Source: Girardia tigrina
Taxonomy: Eukaryota
NCBI GenBank assembly: GCA_001938485.1
Contig: MQRK01181505.1
Span: 1-55,626, forward strand
Reading direction: 5' to 3'
DNA length: 55,626 bases
The position numbers were made by a program, and so were the translations under genes. A model generated the notes under the pieces. It was not told the DNA's origin. It worked only from the letters and a program-made list of their open reading frames with translations, and did not search any database. Numbering within the stretch: the stretch's first letter is position 1; each line of letters starts with the position of its first letter. Positions 1,677-47,040 of the stretch are shown piece by piece.

Positions 1677-3098
1677 AGAACTTGTTAAATAAAAGACAAA
1701 TGTATAAAAACAATAAATCCTTAATTAAGTTTGATTATTTTTGTCACAAAGTTCTGTTTCGAAAATTGTAGATATGTTAAATATCTTCTTCATTTTTATT
1801 TTATTTACTGAACAACCTTGTTAATCATTTTAGCAAGCTTCAGAGAATCAACCTCAGGGTTAATTGAAACGAAATTTAGTTATTAGTGGAAATCGGTTGG
1901 ATATTTTTATTGAGGGTTAATATGGTTTGCTACTAATTATTTCAAATATTTTTTTTAATTCGTAATATTGATTTTTTTATTTTAAATCATATAGCGATAT
2001 TTTAATTATAATTTCATTGTTATATTTTTATTTGATCATAATTTAATGTAAGTGCTGATTATGGTATTCTTATTTTTCTTTATTACTAAGGTCGTAAAAG
2101 AGGATGTATTACGCTTTCGATTATTAGAAAACTATATATATTTAATTAGACATTCTAATCTAAAATTTGTCCTAAAAAAGAAAGTCAGAAATTGGTAATT
2201 TTACTTCTCTTGAGTATAAACTCTTGAGTATAAACCAAGTTTTCATTTTATTTGCATTAAAACTTTTATTTTTCCTTACTTATCAAAATTATCTAGAACG
2301 AAAAAAATGACTTCTTAACTAAGATAGAAAAGGCGGCCATTTCTCATTACATATTTAGATAATACAAACCGGTTTTACCTTTACGACATTACTTCAAAAA
2401 TTATTACATAATACGTTTCAAAAATCATGCTTTAAAATTCTTTCATATGATTGGATGAATCCCCTTAAACATTTAAACACCAATCCTATCATAATTTAAA
2501 TAAAAATTGTTTAAAATCATTTAATAATGTCTAATCGTATTATCAATAAATTAACTCAAAAACAGCCTTCCTTTGCTTTACATACAAAAATATCTCATTA
2601 CTTTAATATAATGAAATACACAAATTTATCATAGTTGTTGTTATAACAAAGGAATATTATTTTAATATTGAAAAATATTCTAAATATTTTCCAGTAAATA
2701 CTTCTACCCCTCAGTCATAAAATGGAACTAAAGATTTCAGTTTGATAATATTATAATTTCATGCTTAAGATTAATTTTAAGTAATTATTTTATAATTTTT
2801 CTAAAGGAATTATATATTATTCTTTTAATTACAATACCTATTGTTACCAGGTTAAAGAGCTTTGTAAAGTTAGGAAAAATTTTTATTATTAATTTCTTCA
2901 TAAGAGAAAAGAATAAAAAGTCCGTCTATTATGGTATCTAAAATTATTAAAAACGGTTCATGGACAAAACTTGGCTAGAAATAATATAGCCAAATTGGCT
3001 AGAAAGAATATGAAAAAGATAAATAAATATTTTAAAATATTCTCTTAATTTTTAATTTTCAAAACGTTTTTTATTTAAAATACAATAATAAAGTTTTG

Positions 3099-4018: not shown

Positions 4019-6066
4019 GAATTATTTCTAATTAACTTTACCAAAGTAAACCGATGTAAATAAATACAATTTAGAAGATCTTTGGAACGCAAATCAGATC
4101 AACAAAAATCAAAACTTGAATCTTTTATTAAATATGAACGCCATGAGATCAAAACTAAGTAATGGTCAATTCATATTTGTCTACCGAAAAAAAGTGGTAA
4201 CAGATTGAGGTAAAATACTATGGCGTTCATTTTGTAGAGTTTCCTCTAATTAAAAAGTGGTAAATTAAGTAAATAAATAAAATCATAAAACAATTTTAAA
4301 GCAATTAAAAGTAAAATTAAATAAAATAATTAAATAAAGAAAATTAATGAAAATTATCAAACATTTTCAAATATATGCGCGAATATGTATGAAAATTATT
4401 GAATATTTTTAAAGACATTGAATTGTTATCAATCGAAAATTCAAATTGTGGTTTGTTTAAATAAAGTAATTTAATCAAGGTTGTTTTCGCGATTGTGCAC
4501 AGTTTTCAAAAAAAATGTAATGTCCAAGAAAAATAAAAGTTTACGAGTCGATTTTCATTTCCAGCTGTTTGATTTTCCTTTCCAATAAAAATTAATAATA
4601 AAAATTTGAATTCTCTTAAACTTTCATGACTTTCGCTTTCTTATCTCTGCGCATTTAAAAAAGTAGAACACCGCTCAATCGATCTCCAATTATTTGACTT
4701 GATCATTAACAAAATGACCCCAACCAAACGACAGAAAATCGATCTGGTTGTCAGTGAAGAAGACTGTCAAACTTTCGTTAATGAACTCGAATTACTCAAT
4801 AAAACGAAATTTTTTTTCGAAGTTAAAAGTTTTATAATTTTCGGTCACTCACATTATCCGAAACGACTCCTAACAAAGAAATTTTCGATTTTCTCTGAGT
4901 TTAGATTTAATGTGGAGGCACGGTTTCCGTCTATTATCTCTAAACGTGTTCTTGGAATCGTCTACATAGGTGACGGAAAGTCTCCCTTTTGTATTTGACA
5001 TCATACCAATTATTTATACACAGATAAACAGCTGTCGAACACAGCAGATGATTTATAACAAAACATATTCTCATATTCATTGAATTTTAATATTATGGAA
5101 AAATTATAATAACAATCAGGATTTATTAATAACTAAACGTGTATATTGAAATTATCGTTAGAGAAGTAAATAAGTAAAAAAAATCCAATTTATTTTCGTG
5201 ACCTGCTTCCTTCCGACCTCTTAGTTTCGTTTGCTTACATTACGTCTCACTGTCGTTTGTGTACTAGGAGTCTAAATATACATTACTTGATGCATGGGTA
5301 AATGTATATTCCTTCTTTGTAATTAAATATATCAATACATGCGACATAATATTTAAAAAATTTTTATAAAAAAATCAATGATTCCTTAAAGAATACAAAA
5401 AGATTTGATTGTAGATTAGACAGAAAAAAAGCAGTTTCAGTGAAACGAAGATAACAGAATCAATAAAAAATTAACAATTAAAAGCAAAAAGAAAAGAAAT
5501 CAATAGAAAGAAGAAAAAGACACTGCTTCAAGACGCTTGTCCCTAATTCTATATTTACCCTTAAATCTTCTAATTTAAAAAGGTACTAAGATACAATTTT
5601 AATCTTAAAATTTTAAAACTGTTTAATTAATTAATCTAGGATTAAATGTTTAAATTTTTTTATTATCAAGTTTATCTAATTTTTTATTTCGTTATTATTT
5701 AAATAAATTAAATTTAAATAAAATGAATTTAAAATATTTTACTATGGAATTTTAATTTAAATTTGTTTGAATGATTTGTGGTTTAGAAATATAAATTTAA
5801 TTTATCAATCAAAAACGATTTCTAACTACGAAAGTTTTGTGGTGGCAATTCGAGTTGTAATGTCAATAAAAGTATTGTAAATCATAATTGATAAAGATTA
5901 ATAATAATTTCCAAATAATTTCCTTCAATAATTTCCAAATTAATCCCATTTATTAAAAATCATTGGTCAATCCTACCAAATACTGAAAAAAAAGTGCAAT
6001 AATATTAAAATTTTCTATGTTTTCTCTGGTAACGCCGGTAATTCATCTCGTATTTATTTATATAAA

Positions 6067-7833: not shown

Positions 7834-9563
7834 ATAGTAATATGAAATATATTTAAAATTCCACACAACCAAGAATCAGTCATTCCCCATGTAACAAAAA
7901 TAATTTTCCTTTAATACACATCGTATGCAAGGTTTCCTGAAATACAAATCTTGGAGCAATTAAAAGATTGTTGGTATTTCTATCTTTGTACTGAACTCGA
8001 CCAATATAACAGTTCTCTAATATGTCAGCGTTTCAAACGATGAATGGTAATTAAGTCACCAGGCTAAGTCAAACAACATTCACACGAATTTTATCCTTTA
8101 ATGTCCTGCTTCTGAAACATTTAGGACTGGTAGGAGTTCGATGGAAACTCAAATTCACATATTCTTTCATATGATAGAAATAGTTTCTTCATCAATACCA
8201 GGGGCAGCGCCGCCATTCAATTAATTTATGATTATATTTTTTAAGAGAATTATCGATCTTAACAATTATTATGGACTGGGAATGCCAATGATCTTAAACG
8301 AAGTTGTACATTGACCTTTAGATCTTCGATGAGGACATAAAGTAGATATGATACTGGCTGTAAACTTCTTATAACCCAGCAGTGCTTCTTTTAGCTAACG
8401 AAAAGGAAAATTAAATACTAGAAACAGAAACCAAGAATCATCACAAATGTTAAATTGAACGCTCCGGAACTGTTGTTGTAGGATGTCTCGGATAGAGGCA
8501 ACCGAAGACCAACTTTGTGCTTAGTTCTCTGAGGCTCTCAGAAATAATACTCACCAATATGTGAAGAATGAGTGAAACCTAAGCATCATGTTATCCTACA
8601 CAACATGATATACGAACAATACCGGATAAGAGAGTTCGCTTCAGCTGGTTGCAAATGACACGACTAAATGAGATTTTGATAGTCAATGAGCGCTTCTGGC
8701 TTGGTTGCCACTCAAAAGAACTTGTTCCTATATATACTTCGAATTTTGAATATTTTATAAGCGAAAATTATTTCATTTTTATTAAAAGTTTAATAAATAT
8801 ATCAAAATTTCAATTTACTTATTTTTACATTAATATTTGATATTTATATATTTATCATTTGCTAGAAAATTCTACGAGCTATTTTCACAGAGAGTTTTTA
8901 AAACATTCAATTAACGGAAATTAACTTTCTGTGGTCCTTGAAATATAAATTCTAGAAAATTAATAAATTTGTAAATTAATAAATTAATAAAAATAACAGC
9001 GTTAGGGAAACGTTAGATAAAATTATTTTTTAACAAACTCATTAGGTTAAAAACCCTTTTTAGATTAATTAATCAACTATAAATATTTACTTTAAAATTC
9101 AAAATCATCATATTAATTAATAAATTTTATTCTTGACATTTTATTTTGTTTATTAATTAATTTATTAATATTTTATTTGTCAATTTTTTACTATTGATTT
9201 TAAGAACCCATTTTTATTTAATACTTTGTTTAGTCAATTTAAACTATCACAATCATTTATATAAATACTTATAAAATATATTAATAATTTTAAGAATATC
9301 AATATGATTTTCTACACTTTTATTATTATCACAGTTTGAATGTCTTTGGGACAATTCTCAGTAAAACTTTTGTAATTCTACATCTAACTAAATTGCTAAG
9401 ATTGTTGATAATAAATCGTTTTACACCATAATTCGAAAAAACTTTCATTTTATAAATTTAAATTATTTTTAATTATTTTATTTGTGATATTTTTACTTTA
9501 AACATTGTGCAATTTAATTTTAAAATTTAATTTTTTTTAATTGTAAACAATTTAATTGACGAA

Positions 9564-10130
9564 ATGGTTCAAAAGGTAATCAAAGGTAGTTCGACGGTTA
9601 TGGCGTGTGAAATGAAAAAGTTCATAAACAATCAATTGATGAGTGAAGTGCAATTTGAAATCGGTCCTGAGCGGAAATTGTTTTACGGTCACAAATGCAT
9701 TTTAACTGCGCGCTGTGAAATATTCAAATCGATGTTTGTCGATCAAATGAGTTGCAAAGACTCCGCAAGTCCGTTAATGTTACAAGAAATGAAGCCGAAT
9801 ATCTTCAAATATTTACTCGAATATCTCTAGACAAATCAAATTAAATTAGAAAAATCTTCCGTTAATGAAACAATTGAATTACTCGCCATTACGATGGAAT
9901 TTGGATTCGAGAACGGGAAAATAGTCGAGAATGTTCGTGTTTCTACGACAATCGTACGATCAATCAAAATTGTCGATTGGCTCGAAAATCGATCGAATGA
10001 AATCCGTGACTGACAGAAGAGATTGGAAGTGTCAGTTGTGTGTTAGTCGATCGATTGTGAGAGACGGGGACAATGGTCGCTACTGTTGCCAATATCACAC
10101 AATGTTGCCGGATGATGTGATCGATCGGTC
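9564..10130 (+). pseudogene. BTBD19: BTB/POZ domain protein (BTBD19-like) pseudogene
   Basis: KFINNQLMSEVQFEIGPERKLFYGHKCILTARCEIFKSMF...LLEYL*TNQIKL...IELLAITMEFG resembles BTBD19 (SLVNNPRYSDVCFVVG...FAHRCLLACRC...LEFLYTNSVKL...EYG); TAG replaces the Tyr of YLYTN; the BACK region is deleted or frameshifted. Confidence 0.75.
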
Positions 10131-21233: not shown

Positions 21234-22514
21234 TTAGGGTGAAACAAGTCTTTTCGTATTTTCTACGTCTTTTTGTTCAATTGTTTCTTATTACCAAATA
21301 AAGATATTTTATATACATATGTTATATATTTTTAAAGCTCTTGAACTACTCTATCACAATATATATTAAAACTTCTAATTAGTCGTTAATATAATTTTTA
21401 TGGTCTTTTAGAAAAATCATAGAAAATTTTGAAATTCGTTTTCTTTTACTCCATTACTGGAAACAGGGCTTAAACGCAACTGCAGCAACAAAGAAGATAT
21501 GCGAAGTTGAAGGCGATAATGTGGTCTCAAATCGTACTGCACAAAATTGGTTCAAAAGGTTCAACGAAGGCGACATTGATCTCGAAGACAATGCACGTTC
21601 AGACAGACCTATCCCCGTAGATTCCGGAGCAATTCGTGAAGCCGTCGAGACAAATCCATCACTCAGTACTCGCAGATTGTCGGCCGAACTCGATATTCCT
21701 CAAACATTCATTGTACGACACCTTCAAGCTCTTGGCAAGGTCAACAGACGATGTCGAGAAGTACCTCATGAATTAACACAATTTTAAACCGAAAAGCGTT
21801 TCGAAACTTGTTAAAAATTGCTTGAAAATCCGCGCGATGACCGTTTCATCCGTCGAATTGTAACTTGCGATGAAAAGTGAGTTTACTTCAGTAATCCAGA
21901 CAAACAAAATCAATGGTTGGACCCCGGACAAATGGCGAAACCGGTATCGAAACGAGATCGTTTCTCAAAGAAGGCACTTTTGTGTGTTTGGTGGAATTTC
22001 GAATGCGTGATTCACTTCGAGCTGGTTCCAAATGGTCGTACCATCGACGCTGACCTTTACTGCGTCCAACTTGATCGAATGTATGCGGCACTTGGCGAGA
22101 AATATCCCGCTTTGATCAATCGAAAGCGAGTTATTCTACATCAGGACAATGCAAAACCGCACACCGTCAAACAAACAAAGGAAAAAATCAAAAATCTCAA
22201 CGCCTTTTAACTTTTTCCACACCCAGCGTATAGTCCGGATCTTGTGCCATCCTACTATCATCTTTTCCGCTCTATGGCACACTTTCTTCGTGGTCGCAGC
22301 TTCAATAATCTGGCCGAGGTCGAAAACAGGTGTCACCAGTTCTTCACTTCTAAGAACAAGGATTGGTATCGCAGCGGGATCGCACAACTTGCCCATAGAT
22401 GGGTTCAAGCTATATATTTAAATGGCCTTTACTTTGAAACTTAAATGTTTTTTTATTTGTTTTAAATTGTTTATATTTTTAATAAAAGATACGAAGACTT
22501 TTGGTTCACCCTAA
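21234..22514 (+). mobile_element. Full-length (1281 bp) inactive mariner transposon
   Basis: TA|TTAGGGTGAAAC...GGTTCACCCTAA|TA; motifs VPHELT, VTCDEK*, LCVWWN, HQDNAKPH, YSPDLVPSYYHLF; has stops and frameshifts, and the third catalytic Asp is Tyr. Confidence 0.95.
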
Positions 22515-30550: not shown

Positions 30551-31398
30551 GGTATTTGGAAAACAATTCCTCGAACTCGGTGTTAGAGTTACGGTTAAGA
30601 TAAAATACCTGGTAGTGGTGCGATTCTATTTAACTCTTTTTTTGAACCCATTTTAAAAAAAATAAAAGTTAAATAAATATTTTAAATAATTAAATTATAA
30701 TAATTAATTAAAGAAAATTAAAATAATTATTAAATAATTAAATTATATAAAAAATTTAATTTAATTTAATTAAATTAAATAATTAAATTAAATATATATA
30801 AGTATTTTTATAAATAAGTATATGTGAGATCATCACGTTCATATGGTTTTCTAATGATTACCGCTTCAATTAATTATTCACTTTGTTCGCAGTTAATCGA
30901 TTCTCTTTGCCGGTTTTCCGCACAAATTTAGTCTCAATTCAACGCTAATTACCAAAATAAAACCAATCGTAAAACATATAAATCCGAATTTGAATTTAAT
31001 TCATTTTGATTTAATCGAATTCAAATTTGAATGATACTCTTTGGGTTTGAATTATTCAAACAAATTAATTTTCGTTTTGTCCAATTAAATGAATCCATTT
31101 GAATAAACCAATGGAAAATCATTTTGGACCATTTTACCAACATAGTATGTTTGCAAGCGTGTGTGTGTCATTGAAGCAGTGTTGAGCGAGTATGTGTGTT
31201 AATCAATTGGAGCAAAAATGAAAAATATCTTTGTGACGTGTTAATGAAAATGGATTGGGTGTGTGTGGAGCAGAGTTTTTTGTCAGAATGATTTAATCAC
31301 AATTAATGTTATAAAAAAAATTAAACAATTTTTTTCTGAAAAAATGTCAATTCAAATGTAAAATTGTTTTTCAATAAGATAAAAATTAATTAAAATAG

Positions 31399-31779
31399 AA
31401 ACGAGCACAAAATGCGATTTGAAGTCGGCAATCGAACAATATGTGGCGACGAAATTTTCATCTCACGCAGAAAAATGCATTTTAGCGGTTGAGGCGTACA
31501 AGAGCGTCAATTGGAAGAGCTTGCTTCGAATTGTCGCTTTGATTCGCAGACGGAGAAATTATGCAATTGTGATATTCAGTGCTAAGAAACTCGCCAACAG
31601 TTCTCCACACAATATTCATGTGATAGATGTGATTCCAGTTGATAATAAAACTAAAATCAGTGACGATCTAACTCGATCTAGTAGCGGCGCGATACAACCA
31701 GCAGTCATAACCGATGAACAATTTAATATCATTAAGTTATTCGAAGTTCAGTCGGAGAAATGTTATGATGTATTGTTAG
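31399..31779 (+). CDS. Exon encoding an INPP5B/OCRL-type N-terminal PH domain
   Basis: EKCILAVEAYKSVNWKSLLRIVALIRRRRNYAIVIFSAKK...VIDVIPVD resembles INPP5B EYCVIAVQG...SRLLGLVR...HALFLY...LDQIVPVS; AG acceptor at 31397-98 and GCAAGT donor at 31780; no phosphatase exons found downstream. Confidence 0.6.
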
Positions 31780-32384
31780 GCAAGTCAATTACAACCCTTT
31801 TCACTACAGAAAAAAACACCCAAAACAAACGAGAATTGTAGATCATACCCACCAATTTAAAAATTTTAAATTCTCAACAAAAACCCAAACTTTCTTTAAT
31901 TCTACAAATTTTTTTAAACAAACCAAACCATTTCAAAAAACTTTCACACCACCCCCCACCTAACCCCCAATTTACCAAAACACATCCAAAAATCCAAACA
32001 AATAATAAATTAATTAAAACTTAAAATACTAATTTCTTTTGGTTAACAGCCAAATATTTTTTTAAACACATAATACTTTACTCCTATAAAAGCAAATTTT
32101 CCACTCCAAAAACCAAACATTTAAATTGTCTTTAGTTGTGGGGAGAAAAACTCTACAAACCTTTTTCCCCACTTCAAAAAAAGACCTCTGACTCCCAAAA
32201 CCAAAATTCTTTAAAATTCTTAAACTACTTGTAGAAAAAATCATATAATTCAACAAAATAAACAACACCAAACACTCAAAACTTTTCTACACAACCTTTT
32301 AAAACTCACAAAGCAAAAAACAAAAGAAATTCAATCTCTCAAAGAAAAAAAATATAAAAAAACTAACAAACACATTACAAAAGA

Positions 32385-34734: not shown

Positions 34735-34758
34735 ACTGATTAATTATTTCTCATTGCA

Positions 34759-36630
34759 ATGAATTATTCTTCAATTTCAGGTAAAAAAAACTCTTTCATC
34801 CTTTATTTTTTATTATTTATCTATTTATTTATTTCTAGAACAGGAAGACAGCTCAACAAGATCGAGTTGCAAAAGGTTAAAAAGAACTTTTCCTAGGAAA
34901 AAACTCTGCAAACAAACAGATGAATTGTTGGGTCTACAATACGATTGTCAAACTGTTAGAGAGGGAGGGAATTATACTTCCCAAGGGCCATTAGATTTAT
35001 CTTTTGAAAGAAATGACACCATAAAGGTCATTCAAAGGTTTAATGATAACTGGCTGGAAGTTGTTAGAACTAAAGACAATACTCAAGGTTTAGTACCGCT
35101 TTCTAATTTTATCAAAGTGAATGGAAGTCCACAAAGTTCTGACGCTTGGATGGACGTTAACAGAAATCAAGCCAAACAGCTCTTAATGAATCCAAAGTTA
35201 AAAAAAGGAACGTATATTGTGAGACCATCAAGTAGTAAGTAAATTACTATAATATTTTTATGACCGTTTGGTTGCAGGAAACAATTCATTAATAATACAA
35301 TTAAACAGTTAACTATTTTTAAATAACTGATTTATCTACATAAATAATCGCGGAACAATAGACAAATATTTATTTTCTAGCAAATCATTTTAATAGGTTT
35401 ACCGTTATTATGTCTCCTATGCCACGTTTTATTCGTATTGTGTTATACAAGTTCTAAAATGCTTTTTATGGAAACAAGGCTACAAAGATCACGAAGATTA
35501 ATTCTTTTTCGACAGATGAAAACTGCGTTCTAGGAAACTTCGGATTTGGCGAAAACGTATTTTAGGATTCTTAAATTCTATTCTAGTACTATATTTGAAA
35601 CGCACATTAGATGCTTCAAATAATCATCTTCTTTAAATGCTTTATTCAAGCCTTTTTATTTCAAATTTTAAAAATATTTTATACAAAATGGCTCGAGTTC
35701 GAACTTCTGCATGAGAATGACTTTTCGTTGAATCTTCATCCTAACCCTTAAATTTTAGATACTTACACTTAATTGTATCTGAAAATAAATATCAATCTGA
35801 GAAATTTAAATGGAATCTCAAAAATAAATAAATTTTAAACTAGTAAATCAAAAAGTGAAATTTTTTATATTCATTCTTTATGTAGACAGAACTCTACTTT
35901 GCCAACAAAGATTTTAATTAAAAAAAATATTTAAAAAAGAAACACAATAAAAAATTAATATAAACTATTTATAATTTATAAGAAATTTAAAAAATAATGG
36001 CAAATTTTTATTAAAATCAAATTTTATTTTCGCAATATATTTCTATGGATTTTCCACCATCTTCAGGATGAATTAACAACAATTTCGCTGTCTCATATAC
36101 AGCAAATTGATGATTTGTTTGAGACTTGTTTGGACATTAATGAACGGATTAAGTGATTTAATCAATAATGCTTCACAAGTAACTCTTTCCCAATAAGTTT
36201 TAAAATCATTACATAATATTTTAAAATTAGTTGTTTTCACCTCCGATCTACAAACCATCATGTGTCCAGTAATATTACTCCCATTACCCAATCGTCCATG
36301 CTCCTGAATCCGTTTACAGAGATGACGAGACGTCTCTCCAATGTATGTAGCGTTGCACCCATTACACGAAAATTGATAAACCAGATTGGAGCATAAACTC
36401 AAAGGAGTACGAGATTTATTGTTCAACATACTTTAAATTTTGTAAGATTTAGAAAGTATTGTTAAATTCAAATTTTTACTATCGATTGATTTTTAAATAA
36501 ACGATTTAATTTTTTTTAACCTTCTGAAAAAGGAACGATTAGCGTATATCCAATTGTTTATTGATATATAAATAAAATGAATTATAATTATAAAATTTAG
36601 AATATAATAATGATAATAATTAACACACAT

Positions 36631-36701
<71 letters not shown>

Positions 36702-39700
36702 AGGATGAACAAAATATATCCGAATCAATTCTTTAGTTTCTTTACATAACTTTCATTTAAAGTGCTTGAAATTGTAAATTGTCATATTTGAAAATTAGTT
36801 ACATTGTAATTACCATCAGCATAAATCTGGTTTGTGATATGACTTCGGATCACTTAACTAATCATACAAGCTTACTACTGAAGACATTTATCTTGACGTT
36901 TTTAACCTATCAACATTCGATGGTAAGATCGAAAAGGACTTCTATAATAATTGGTTACGGGGTATAAGAATTCAATTCCGAAAAGTGACTTTTAGGAACT
37001 ACTAACCACATCCATAGTGGAGATAAAGCGCTAATATTACACTATACAGGTTTGATGAGATAATAACTAAAAATAACAATATGAGCTCTAGCGATTTCAT
37101 AATTTTAGGACGAGCATTTGTATTACTTTCTCATATTTAATTGCGAGGACAAGCAACAACTCTAATTTCAGCTTTAAAAACATATATTTAAATTATTACT
37201 ATTGGGTTCTTGATCAAGAGAGGAAGTCCTTAACGCAAAACGTTATTTCTATAACAATTTATATCAAACCATTATAAATAAAAATAGATATAAATATTGA
37301 TATTGTTATGACATTTATTAAGAATTTAAATTTTATTTTTTTTGTTAACATTAAAGAGTTATTTTAATAAAATTTTGCCACAATGATTTTGTTGCATCCT
37401 TCATTATATTGCCATTTTATTATACATTTTAATTTACCCGTTTCTCAATTACATTTCCCCATTCTATAAAATAAAATTTTCATTTCGTTTTCATAATCGT
37501 TTAAAAATTATTTTTAGATTTGGTAAAATAACGTTTTAAAAAATAAAATTAAAATCGCAATTTTTGTTTAATTTAACAACTTTTCAATTACCCTGTTTTT
37601 ATATAAAAAAAATATATTTTAGATGTTTTCATTTAATCCATTTTTTAATGAAAGTTATATTTTCATTTTGTCTTAAAGCAATTATATTTTAATTTAAAAT
37701 TTATGAATTAATATCATTTTTGATTTGTTTCATATTGACATAAACGTTTTACAAAATAATTTTCTAGTTTATTTATTAGTTTTCACATTAAATTTTACGT
37801 TTCATATAAAATTATAATTTACTTTATTAATAAATCTATTTATTGGTTATATGTTAAACATTAAAAATTAGTTTTATATGAATTCCTTTTTTATACTATT
37901 TTATAAAAATCTCATTTTAACATGATCTATAAATCTACTTTCCGAAATGTAATTATTGAATTAATAAATGGATAACATTTCAAATTCAAATATTTTGTGA
38001 ACTCAAAAAGGCTTCAAATAATTACAGTTAAAAAGCTCATTTTTTAAATTTAAAAAAGATCTTTGAAAGCTTTGACTGGTAGATCTTTTCCTTCTACGTC
38101 GAGTATATCTTGAATGCTTTTTGGGAGTTGAATGATGAAAAAAATCGAGTTCTCAAGGAGGTTATGTTTGCAGTAAGTACAGAAAGATGACTTAGCTGAC
38201 AATAAGAAAATTATAAAATATCAATCAATCGTCAGAGTATGAAAGCTACAAAATTCAAGGAAAGGTTTAATAATATTTTTATTACTTTTAGGTCCATAAA
38301 ATCCACTTACTGATATTTGAAATTATAATTAAAACTTGAATATCAGTTTATTAAATTATATATTAACATAAAAAATATTTAATCTTCTTATATGTTCGCT
38401 TTGAGATTATTTTTCGAATCTTGGTTTATAGAAGAATCAGAAATTGTCATTATTCAAAATTTTATTTATGCAACACAATAACATATTTATCGAACAAATT
38501 TTCGAGGACCAATGTTCCTTTTGTACAAATACATAAAGATAATGTAATATAAATACGAATACTTAAATTATTATTTCTTTTAATAAAATTTTATCCTTTA
38601 AAAATTTCGTTAAAATTCTTTTATTTTAATTAATTTTATAAAATCTTCACATCAAATTTATTTAAATTATAAAGTTGCTATTTAATCGTTAAATATATTT
38701 TTAAGTGAAAATTTAAACTAAACTCTTCTATTGTTTATTATTATAAAATTATCATTTTTTTAAAAATGTTAAACCAAACGTTTCATTTTGATTTTATATT
38801 CTTATATAAATGTCTAAAATATTTTAAAATATTTTGAAAAATCCTTTGAAGTATACTAAATACTTAAATTCAAAAATTTATGCGAACTCTCTAAAGTTTT
38901 CACGTTATATATTTAGTCTTATTTTAAAAAACGTAATTTTTTTAAAAACATGCTACTTAATGGAGCTTCCTTTTCAATAAATCCTAAAAGAAGGATAAGC
39001 TACACAGAAGCTGGAATTATTAATCATCAATTAAAAACATACACCCCCTTATATTAACTTATTTATATTTATATGTATTACTGTAATGATAGATAATGTC
39101 AGTTTCATATCTGAATAATACATTATAAAACATGATTAACCAGTTTTGTTGAGCCTAACCGGAATTTCAATCAATCTATTCCATCGCTTGATGAACATTC
39201 AAAATAAAAACTTTATCAACGTACTTCTGTCCATGTAACGGTCAATGTCAATAGCGGGTCTATCAAATCAAACCACCCACTGAAAGTCGAGTTTAAAGGG
39301 TTAAACCATAAAGTTATACATGATAAACAAATCAATGTTTATCTTAACAACGTTTTATTACAAAAATTAATCTAACATTTTAAATGATAATACTATGTAA
39401 TTTAATGATTGAAAACTGCAAATGATTTAGTTAGAAATAAGACTGATAAAATTTACAGTCTTCCTTAAAGTAAACGTCATTGAGTGCGAAAAGAAGTATA
39501 ACGATCTTTAAATAATGTGTAATCGCTGGAAGTCGAACTCATATCGTATTCATGTAAGGCATAAATGCTGACTATTACAACTGTATGTGGTCATCTGTAC
39601 AAGCCAGTCAGACATACTTCTTCGTAGTGTAGATTGGATTCGATTTCGTCTCTTGGCTAAAGTGTCTGAAAGTTTGCCGATTTCTGTGTCAACTGAGTAT

Positions 39701-40481
39701 TGTTGTGTCAAGTGACTTGCAATTAATTTACAAGACTCTAGCTTCCTCTGGTTGTGAAGCCTGTAAAATGGGATTCGTGAACCTGCAGTTCATTGCAATG
39801 ATATCCTATTGAATTGAATTTTTTGTCATCATTTGAGTTGAATTCTTTTGCAATGAAGCCTGTTTATACAAGTGGAGCAGTATCGTATCGATTCTTAGTT
39901 GGGGGAGGGGTATGAAGGCCTCATCAGCGTCCTAAGCCTGCAAAAAAGCCTCGGGGGGATTCATTACTATTATTAAATTTATATATTATAATTTAGGGAA
40001 GCTCTGCTACGCTCTATCGGTCCGGGTATGGGACAAAAGAAAAAGGAAATTTGTTGTAAAAAACTTCTTAATCAAAACTAACAAAAGCCTCCAAGGGGAA
40101 GAATATGCCACGAATATTCGATATTATGCAAACATTGAATCGATGATCAGCTATTTTAAAAGTAAGAATGATATAAAAAATAATTTTTGCAAATATTATT
40201 TTTTATCATTAGAATATGGAATCGGAACTATTAGAACAAGATTAACCGATCCAATTCCACTTGATCTACCATACCCTTCTCAACACACTGATACCTTTAA
40301 ACCTTGTGAAGCAAAAGAAAAACAGATTAATTTTTGGTATGGGAACGCAAATGATGAAACAAATACGAAAATTAAGAAGAAAAAGAATATTTTTAAAATC
40401 GGAAAACGTGCAGTCTTAGAGAAGTTTAAAACTTACTATAAGAAAATCTGGAAAACATTCAATAACAATTCTTTGAATTAA
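34759..40481 (+). CDS. Src-family-derived SH3-SH2 protein, 4 exons, 283 aa, apparently lacking the kinase domain
   Basis: Exons 34759-34780, 34839-35234, 39997-40161 and 40213-40481 are all GT-AG and phase 1, with no stops. SH3: DLSF..NDNWL..GLVPLSNF. SH2: AWMDVNRNQAKQLL..GTYIVRPSS|RKLCYALSVRVWD..VKNFLI..IESMISYF|K..RLTDP. Confidence 0.85.
36030..36070 (-). ncRNA. Degenerate minimal hammerhead ribozyme
   Basis: CTGAAGA-t-gGTGGA aaa TCCATa-GAAA-TATA-TT-gcgaa; a second stem II+GAAA remnant (GCTGT..ACAGC-GAAA) lies at 36083-36103. Confidence 0.55.
36030..36555 (-). mobile_element. Penelope-like element 3' fragment (GIY-YIG endonuclease) inside intron 2 of the SH3-SH2 gene
   Basis: ORF 36073-36429: NLVYQFSCNGCNATYIGETSRHLCKRIQEH...H...C...ERVTCEALLIKSLNPFIN. 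Confidence 0.9.
36632..36699. repeat. Compound (CA)n(TA)n microsatellite
   Basis: Seen directly in the sequence. Confidence 0.95.
39518..39590 (-). pseudogene. Decayed tRNA-like sequence (tRNA-Val(TAC) pseudogene or SINE head)
   Basis: A-box-like TGTAATAGTCAGC, loop CTTACAT and B-box GAGTTCGACTTCC at tRNA spacing; the stems pair poorly. Confidence 0.35.
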
Positions 40482-41252
40482 AATATAAAAAACCTTTTTA
40501 TTCGAACACATTTCTTTAACGTTTTTCCAAAACCATTTTCTCAGTTTATTTATTCATAAAAATTTTTTTTAAACAGATTTGTTTGGTATTATCACAACGT
40601 TTTCTTTTCGTTTTTTGAACTAATTCTTTATTAAAATGTTTTAGTTGTGATAAAAAAACTGTTGGTGTTGTATATTTAATGGGTTTGAAACTTTTATTTT
40701 AGAGTTCTTCCCATTGTATTATATTCAGAAAAAATAATTTAATAAATATTAAATAAAAAGGAATCTTATTTTCAATTAATGAAATATTTGCATAAAGTTT
40801 TCAAAAATATAAAACATTGAAAAATTGATTTTATCATCATTTAGAAGAAGACATGTAATAGGATAAAGATTAAGATTAAGAAAAGAGAAGGTCAGTTATT
40901 GTTCGAACTCTCTCCTAAAGAAAGAAAATTAAAAAAAACTATTTCCCATAATTATTTTAATTTGGTTATAATAAAATTATTTAAAAACATTATCATTATT
41001 AACAAAATCAACATGATTTTTCGAACATTTATTAATATCACAAGGGGAATTGCCATTACAATATTATTCAAACTACTTTGGCCATTCGACATTCTTTCTT
41101 GATTAATATATTTCTGAAATTTAAATATTACATTTGAAAAAATATAAAATAAGTATAATATTTAAATAATTATACTTTAAAATTAAATTAAAATAATTTT
41201 CAATTAGTAGGAATCAAAGAAAATACCAATCTATATTATAGGGATAAAAATA

Positions 41253-45740: not shown

Positions 45741-46164
45741 TAATTCTCGTCATTCAACGAAAAATTTTCATCCCGAAATTTCTTAAACAAATGCTGGCAT
45801 TTTCTGACACAAACTGTACCTTGACCAAAAACACTGCAAATATTTTTAGCAGCCTCATTTGCTTTTCTTTCAAAGTAAAACTCGTAAAGCATGCAATGCC
45901 TTATATTCTCTTCATCTACGATCCTTTGCCATCTACTCTGAAAAAAAATTCAACAGTTAAAACGCAAAATATTTGCAACAAACCTTGTTAATTAAGCTTT
46001 ACACTTTTAGTAAAGACCAAACATTTTGTATACAAAAAAGCAGGTTTGAAGGTTATATTGATGCATTTAAACGAAGATCAAATAAATTACATTAATTATT
46101 ATTAGACCTATTATTCGGTTTTCGATCGGTTTTCGTTTTTGACTAAGGATTCTAAAAAGAAAAA

Positions 46165-47040
46165 TAGAGCAGGTCTACCAAAATTTCAAGGAAAATTTTG
46201 CCATAGGTGAAGTTCAATCATTTGCATCAACAAATCTTCTTGCTCAAAAATGGAAAGACAAACGCGATGTTCATATCCTTACATCAATTCATAAACCCAG
46301 TATGCAAGATAGTGATAAAATTGACTATACAACTGGTCAGTTTAAACGTAAGCCAACGAGTGTTCTTGGTTACACTACGTATATGAGTGCTGTCGATGAT
46401 ACTGATATGCAAATGTCATTTACAAGCTGTGATAGAAAAACAACAAAGTGGTACAAAAAGTTTTTCTTTCATCTAATGGATATTGCTATGTTATATTCAT
46501 ATCAAGCATACAAATTATAAAGAAGCGTGGATATTTAATTATTTGATTTCAAGTATAAACTCATAACTAAACTTATTCAAAAGTACCATTCAGGAGAAGC
46601 ATGTAGAATTGGTAGAAAATCAATGGACAACCGTCTGAGACTGATTTTTCGCCACTTTTCATCATTTATACCTCAACTTCCTGGAGAAAAGGTAGAGACT
46701 AAAAGACATTGCAAAGTGTGCTCGTCAAACGGAAATCACCAAAAAACAATTTTTATGTGTAATCACTGTAAAATTGTTCTATGTGCTGCACCTTGCTTCA
46801 ATGATTTTTACACGAAAGTGCATATCAACTTATAAACATTCTTCTGTTTATCAAAACCTTTATTATGCTTTTTTTTAGTAATTTTAAATTCTTTTGATCA
46901 AAAAATTTGAAACTTTCGAAATTATGTAGTACTTACGTGATTTGTAATGATATCAATATTTTTCTTTGATTTACAAATTCAGAATTGCTTCTTTTATAAC
47001 AAACAAATTTAAACAACAAAAAAATTCGGTAGTGAAAGGG
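46165..47040 (+). mobile_element. piggyBac (PGBD4-like) 3' half
   Basis: KWKDKRDVHILTSIH...KP..VLGY...MSAVD..D...RKTTKWYKKFFFHLMDIA; Cys-rich tail CKVC...CNHCKIVLCAAPCFNDFYT; right end AAAGGG|TTAA. Confidence 0.9.

Follow-up and report, generated by a model that had tools for sequence, protein, structure and literature searches.

A kinase-less paralogue of the Src-family gene Spk-1 in the planarian Girardia tigrina, possibly an SH2 decoy

The planarian Girardia tigrina carries a transcribed Src-type gene that has SH3 and SH2 domains and no kinase domain. It lies on the forward strand of contig G000:C181505 (MQRK01181505.1) of the 1.43 Gb assembly, and this whole contig, 55,626 nt long with 27% G+C, is the window of our analysis; it ends 15 kb downstream of the gene. 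Four coding exons (34759-34780, 34839-35234, 39997-40161 and 40213-40481, +) add up to 852 nt and encode 283 amino acids and a stop codon. A preliminary description of this DNA, made from its letters, had joined them in frame across introns of 58, 4762 and 51 nt. The gene model and the transcript contigs bore out this structure, with GT-AG borders at all three introns and the boundary of intron 2 set by the GT..AG joint in the contigs.

Exon 1 (34759..34780, +) supplies seven codons plus one base and a new start, Met-Asn. The N-terminal Met-Gly myristoylation site is thus absent, as had been described, and we found no DNA trace of an ancestral Met-Gly start (143/300 and 277/300 shuffles reach the score). 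The 5' untranslated region (UTR; 34738..34758, +) contains no ATG, and its outer limit, the most 5' transcript end listed, comes from a single contig of run X6. Intron 1 (34781..34838, 58 nt, GT-AG) has no counterpart at this place in the intact paralogues. Exon 2 (34839..35234, +), delimited by the gene model, Pfam, transcripts and structure matches, encodes a basic N-terminal region, the SH3 domain and the first part of the SH2 domain. Intron 2 (35235..39996, 4762 nt, phase 1) lies where Spk-1-type paralogues also have one and contains repeats, including a GIY-YIG fragment at 36076-36432 (-; Pfam). The SH2 core follows in exon 3 (39997..40161, +; placed by transcripts, tree and column counts). 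Intron 3 (40162..40212, 51 nt, phase 1, position as in the paralogues) is stop-free and in frame, yet is spliced out. The coding part of exon 4 (40213..40481, +) holds the end of SH2, a leftover of the SH2-kinase linker, a basic tail of 73 residues and the TAA stop; homology is clear to 40259.

Transcript evidence came from assembled contigs of four runs (X1, X2, X6 and X11) of 11 matching runs in five studies. Such contigs drop rare forms, and the evidence stood among the 15 of 25 joints and 20 of 517 loose ends listed. No run is recorded as RNA, and we take them to be RNA because they show splicing and poly(A). The four do not include X9 and X10 (organisms C and D, shares 0.17 and 0.11), whose low shares say nothing on whether relatives have the truncation. 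Contigs of X1, X2 and X11 lack introns 2 and 3, with joints at GT..AG; these are three of the four runs and, as X1 and X2 stem from one sample, two studies. A single contig of X6, from a third study, crosses intron 1, and its 5' end at 34738 carries a loose end that we take to be adapter-like; X6 has zero cover over exons 3-4.

The preliminary description had named in advance a finding that would speak against loss of the kinase, namely splicing from a GT donor near 40337 to kinase exons. This splice is absent from the main transcript contigs: the three that cover exon 4 are continuous through 40337 to poly(A), with no letter differing. A proximal poly(A) signal, ATTAAA at 40477-40482, precedes cleavage at 40506 (40477..40506, +), where X1 carries 20 non-templated A. 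The 3' UTR (40482..40763, +) has AATAAA at 40741 and 40752 and a distal site at ~40759-40763, where loose ends of X2 and X11 continue as non-templated A after 40763 and 40759, respectively. Each A run lies 3' of an ATTAAA or AATAAA, and the genomic sequence past these sites is not A-rich. Since the contigs read through 40337 into poly(A), the message ends without a kinase. Neither a six-frame motif scan nor tblastn with the kinase of an intact paralogue detected a kinase exon anywhere in the window, on one strand or the other, in agreement with the earlier remark that HRD and DFG exons are missing downstream. These results show a spliced, polyadenylated message without kinase exons. Of a kinase domain with glycine loop, HRD and DFG only a likely remnant is left, and the gene is no longer a Src-family kinase.

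Exon 2 has 21 matches in the genome. The closest belong to two genes, paralogue A (loci L021, L024, L037 and L040) and paralogue B (L025 and L023), both of them intact kinases with Met-Gly, SH3, SH2, HRD and DFG; the C-lobe exons of A were located, those of B were not. Over 129 residues, paralogue B and Girardia tigrina Spk-1 (SPK1_GIRTI, P0170) share 98% identity. The window gene has introns 2 and 3 at the same positions and in the same phases (1 and 1) as paralogue A. In an SH3-SH2 tree of 30 rows, made of matches covering both domains and of exons from the same genome (apart from exon L034b, which did not pass the filter) and holding no named SLA, SLA2 or Frk sequence, it is sister to paralogue A plus Spk-1 with support 100/100. 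The Src-type order of SH3 then SH2, the place in the tree and the shared introns together indicate that the window gene descends from the Src family. One copy of it was found in the assembly; genome matches of exons 3-4 on C13724 and C228008 are weak and look like chance.

Other members of the family were seen on the way. On contig G000:C205844, a kinase C-lobe exon (L040 9409-9588, -) lies ~11 kb upstream of the first exon of Spk-1 (L025 1986-2372, -) on the same strand, and a Spk-1-type kinase, likely paralogue A, and Spk-1 would therefore stand in tandem. The DNA of paralogues A and B shows 99% identity over SH3 and 84% over SH2, a contrast that suggests gene conversion or sequence exchange within the family. 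An intronless Src-family kinase frame of 537 codons (L026:2045-3655, -), 74-89% identical to exons at L033 and L029, is likely a retrocopy with an intact frame. Contig G000:C191208 (L034) holds two divergent SH3-SH2 exons ~1.9 kb apart, at 4143-4415 (+) and 2029-2265 (-). Kinase exons (L087) lie downstream of the minus-strand exon; none was found in the remaining 12 kb after the plus-strand exon, where the contig may simply end first.

Both binding domains of the window gene were recognised by the preliminary description, and our searches confirmed them. SH3 (residues 46-102; 34952..35122, +) matches Pfam SH3_1 at E 9e-10. The exon 2 part of SH2 (35144..35234, +) gives E 4e-4 and 20.9 bits, just under the Pfam cut-off of 21, and the exon 3 piece by itself has no SH2 match in Pfam; the SH2 as a whole aligns with that of Spk-1 across 86 codons at 43-44% identity. 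The closest solved structures are c-Src, both by sequence and by fold. The SH2 is divided between exons, and the structure model covers exon 2 only; in it the SH3 core blocks have pLDDT 86-93 and superpose on Src-family SH3 at ~1.3 A.

The SH3 domain is predicted from this model and from column counts to have kept its fold while its ligand pocket degenerated. At the equivalent of Src Tyr90 it has Gly51, where 28 of the 29 other rows have Tyr, Phe or His. The Asn-Tyr pair is replaced by Ser96 (Asn in 26/29 others) and Asn97 (Tyr or Phe in 28/29), and an Ala by Glu49; Trp79 and Pro94 are retained. HMMER instead reads residues 95-98 as a one-residue insertion with Ser-Asn-Phe kept, a reading that leaves the loss at Gly51 unaffected. 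In Src, Tyr90, Asn135 and Tyr136 make up the first ligand pocket (PMC10361714). The canonical PxxP-binding surface, which comprises these three residues and Trp118, is not found in the window protein, though Trp79 is kept.

The SH2 domain has Asn162 where 26/26 other rows have His, which we take to be the strand D histidine of Src-type SH2; this mark of the family is missing. The arginine of the FLVR motif, Arg136, which the preliminary description had noted as retained, is present in 29/29 other rows, and Arg116 in 24/29. In Src-like SH2 domains these two arginines, of the FLVR motif and helix A, are described as binding the phosphate (PMC9783222), and the window protein keeps both. It has 54 basic and 27 acidic residues, with basic clusters at 19, 27, 153, 249 and 271.

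Protein similarity to the paralogues stops at the linker motif LTDPIP (residue 210). The preliminary description had placed the tail at the glycine-rich loop of the kinase, a placement that does not hold: the Gly of FKIGKRAV lies 53 residues past LTDP, against 31 for the loop of the paralogue, so that a glycine loop would lie 22 residues earlier. FKIGKRAV corresponds instead to the activation loop, and the tail as a whole to a remnant of that loop with intron read-through. In none of three frames did a local alignment of the tail with the paralogue kinase outscore shuffles, and the homology is visible only in DNA comparison and on a fixed diagonal. There, window positions 40400-40470 match L021 964-894 at 47 of 71 nt, of which 18/26 fall in the end of paralogue A's activation-loop exon and 29/45 in the next intron. 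The match scores 33.5 bits, whereas the best of 407 null tiles, taken from other loci, scores 24.8 and their mean is 16.0 (fitted P ~5e-6); 137 other stretches of the window and 100 shuffles also fell short of it. The match lies in the kinase frame (GKRAVLEK vs GNLGEQEK), and TT stands in the window gene at the site of paralogue A's GT donor. Eighteen codons upstream on the same diagonal, ANDET faces ANDLT of Spk-1 (ranks 8 of 746, 15 of 728 and 3 of 253 other offsets); the DFG position is now KKK.

From this comparison, 40347..40425 (+) is likely the decayed remnant of a kinase exon that held the DFG motif and the first part of the activation loop, with 6-7/26 residues as in the paralogues. 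The last stretch, 40426..40481 (+), likely derives from the start of the ancestral intron by read-through. The intron after the activation-loop exon of paralogue A (L021:877-938, -) is itself open for ~20 codons in frame. The tail has no match in Pfam and three chance matches among solved structures (E ~0.3). A catalytic-loop remnant with a frameshift, suspected by eye, was absent among the top ungapped segments.

We compared the SH3-SH2 region of the window gene with paralogues A and B, to which it is 43-44% identical in protein over 165 codons. The three codon positions are identical to those of paralogue A at rates of 0.61/0.68/0.41; dN is 0.46-0.47, and silent sites have reached saturation. 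A codon model rejected omega = 1 (2dL 62.5) and omega = 0.2 (11.5) and, marginally, omega = 0.1 (4.1). The preliminary description had held that dN/dS near 1 would count against a maintained gene; against the paralogues it is far below 1, and these codon comparisons show purifying selection on SH3-SH2. The region has no stop or frameshift, and of 1000 simulated neutral copies at 44-45% protein identity (substitutions only) none kept an open frame. Around DFG, as a rule the most conserved region, the window remnant shares 3/15 residues, against 8-10/15 between paralogue A and six intact kinases. Because the kinase remnant is far more decayed than SH3-SH2, selection on the latter likely outlasted the kinase and went on after its loss.

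Taken together, the tree, the transcripts and dN/dS favour the broader proposal of the preliminary description, a Src-family paralogue whose kinase was lost in an event separate from that of SLA/SLA2 and whose frame was kept by selection. We propose, with a probability of about one half, that this kinase-less Spk-1 paralogue encodes an unanchored SH2 decoy, which would occupy phosphotyrosine sites otherwise read by Spk-1-type kinases. A Spk-1-type gene would have been duplicated, and the N-lobe sequence 3' of the linker removed by deletion. The DFG exon would have decayed, and loss of the next splice donor would have let the frame enter the intron, where the message ends at intronic poly(A) signals; a new first exon would have been acquired. 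The kinase was likely lost via internal deletion, decay and intronic polyadenylation, not necessarily in this order. The SH2 would bind phosphotyrosine, probably with shifted specificity because of the change from His to Asn at 162. The SH3 would likely be poor at PxxP binding and persist chiefly as a folded module. With no myristate and several clusters of basic residues, the protein likely resides in the cytosol or the nucleus. By binding without catalysing, it would damp or redirect Src-type signalling; kinase-less forms are described as often dominant negative (PMC3189609).

Several observations weigh against this proposal. The dN/dS estimate spans the whole path to the paralogues and mixes the periods before and after kinase loss. 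SH2 is altered at 4/13 conserved columns, Asn162 included, and SH3 at 4/8; the three other SH2 changes are conservative. The branch of the window gene measures 1.0, against 0.38 plus 0.02-0.05 on the other side, ~2.5 times that of its sister. No orthologue emerged from another species: word-index queries of protein sequences with exon 2 (longer proteins) and with the frame of exons 3-4 came back empty, and none of the 150 listed among the 158 HMMER matches to cluster representatives exceeds 47% identity. As to the tail, an intron match to paralogue B is absent, its score being equalled by 41/140 null stretches. Overall identity in the 128 nt that precede the DNA match is not above chance (31 and 33/128; null means 37.6 and 38.6), and homology upstream of the match is therefore supported by the ANDET segment alone. 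Identity in the intron (64%) exceeds that at 29 four-fold sites (41%; Fisher p 0.06), and the match to A only may stem from later sequence exchange in the family. Expression, ancestry, the lack of a kinase and selection are shown, whereas decoy binding, localisation and inhibition are inferences, and the protein product is a predicted one.

The closest relative of the window gene is Spk-1, by identity over SH3-SH2-linker (43-44%), by position and phase of two introns and by its sister place in the tree. Gly2, the canonical surface of SH3, the histidine of SH2 and a complete kinase are features of Spk-1 that the window gene lacks; the latter has instead a new first exon and a tail of remnant and intron sequence. 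Among other kinase-free proteins, isoforms of protein kinases made by splicing or polyadenylation, such as short A-Raf and TrkB-T1, are described as keeping binding modules without a catalytic domain and as often dominant negative (PMC3189609), and the end of the window-gene message likewise looks like the intronic termination of such isoforms. These are isoforms of an intact gene, whereas the truncation in the window is fixed in a separate paralogue with saturated silent sites. The planarian gene src-1 of Schmidtea mediterranea is also of the Src family, with SH3 and SH2 (10.1101/2021.08.18.456902), but has a kinase domain.

The preliminary description had called the gene SLAP-like. The vertebrate SLAPs (SLA/SLA2) are described as having a Src-type SH3 and SH2, no kinase domain and a unique C-terminal tail (PMC4539169), and this layout the window protein shares. 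The likeness is weakened by the degenerate SH3 surface, the replaced SH2 His and the missing myristoylation site. According to the same source, SLAPs are myristoylated, need SH3 and SH2 and recruit c-Cbl. We do not regard the gene as a SLAP, because its SH3 ligand pocket and Gly2 are lost. Nor does it appear to be a SLAP orthologue: it nests with planarian Spk-1, in a tree without a named SLAP sequence, and none of 21 solved-structure sequence matches is a SLAP chain. As the window gene nests with a planarian kinase, the kinase-free SH3-SH2 design was likely reached separately by vertebrate SLAP.

A different reading of the altered binding surfaces is that the protein has taken a new job without canonical phosphotyrosine binding, for instance as a basic nuclear or membrane-surface scaffold on the SH3-SH2 fold. 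Ligand residues have changed in both domains while the fold was retained, basic residues outnumber acidic ones two to one in the protein and form the clusters given above, and SLAP isoforms without myristoylation are described as nuclear (PMC4539169). We still hold this scaffold unlikely: both phosphate-binding arginines outlasted a branch of about one change per column, and AT-rich sequence is expected to yield a basic bias.

The gene may also be a relic that is still transcribed: a once intact kinase gene, old and evolving fast, from which the kinase exons disappeared only recently and whose frame is still unbroken. dN/dS does not date the kinase loss, and the loss of conserved ligand residues, the single copy and the lack of an orthologue elsewhere would fit a relic. 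A recent loss agrees poorly with an in-frame kinase remnant that is nearly unrecognisable beside an SH3-SH2 that stands at 44% without stop or frameshift. With three introns all spliced and poly(A) sites used in runs from several studies, a relic seems distinctly unlikely.

That the protein does the work of a SLAP, as a two-handed adaptor with SH2 and SH3 on receptors and a tail that recruits a ubiquitin ligase such as Cbl, appears improbable. Against the shared SH3-SH2-unique tail layout (PMC4539169) stand the missing Gly2, a tail of kinase and intron debris without a family match, and a degenerate SH3 pocket, when inhibition by SLAP-1 is reported in that source to need SH2 and SH3. A minor isoform that joins kinase exons past the contig end, by which the gene would still encode a kinase, would fit a contig that stops 15 kb downstream, an intron of ~8.9 kb at the equivalent place in paralogue A and the loss of rare forms in the assembled contigs and listed joints and loose ends, but it is highly improbable, given three contigs unbroken through 40337 to poly(A). 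The window gene also lacks the N-lobe sequence, which directly adjoins the linker in the paralogues, and its DFG position is destroyed in place, so that downstream exons could not yield a working kinase.

The rest of the window holds transposon debris and gene fragments, and the preliminary description had contrasted the decay of neighbouring gene fragments with the intact SH3-SH2 gene. The comparison is a poor one, as the one neighbour examined for copy number belongs to a family with at least 150 genome matches. This is an INPP5B/OCRL-type PH-domain frame at 31383-31838 (+; Pfam E 8e-7), whose matches are 74-100% identical (150 of 353 candidates scored). Two of three copies fetched (L089:2-1657, L091:55-1377 and L090:69-1475) have it within a single long frame, preceded by pieces of cullin, tesmin-type CXC and ThiF (E1-like), and in the last copy it follows a ThiF fragment; the family looks like an amplified element with captured pieces of host genes. 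A BTB-domain frame at 9531-9830 (+; Pfam E 1.5e-10) has an in-frame TAG within the domain and open pieces to ~10470, which mark it as a broken gene copy. Transposon debris comprises a mariner-like transposase with breaks at 21395-22441 (-), recognised by eye, and a DDE_Tnp_1_7 fragment at 46143-46832 (-; Pfam).

In the literature searched, mostly from outside subscription journals, the kinase-free Src adaptors are the vertebrate SLAPs, and we found no kinase-less Src paralogue of a planarian or other invertebrate. Tentatively, and as a bolder claim than the decoy itself, this planarian would have evolved, separately from vertebrate SLAP, a dedicated, soluble, kinase-free Src brake that works through SH2 only and whose steps are still legible in the sequence. 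The gene was found in one lineage only, which limits its value. If the claim is true, a second, separate origin in a flatworm would mean that the design of a kinase-free Src adaptor was reached repeatedly, and this would be a case whose DNA still shows the steps from kinase to adaptor. In planarians, Src signalling through src-1 is described as patterning head and trunk and as testable by RNA interference (10.1101/2021.08.18.456902). Planarians readily take RNA interference, and a natural Src decoy would be directly testable in them.

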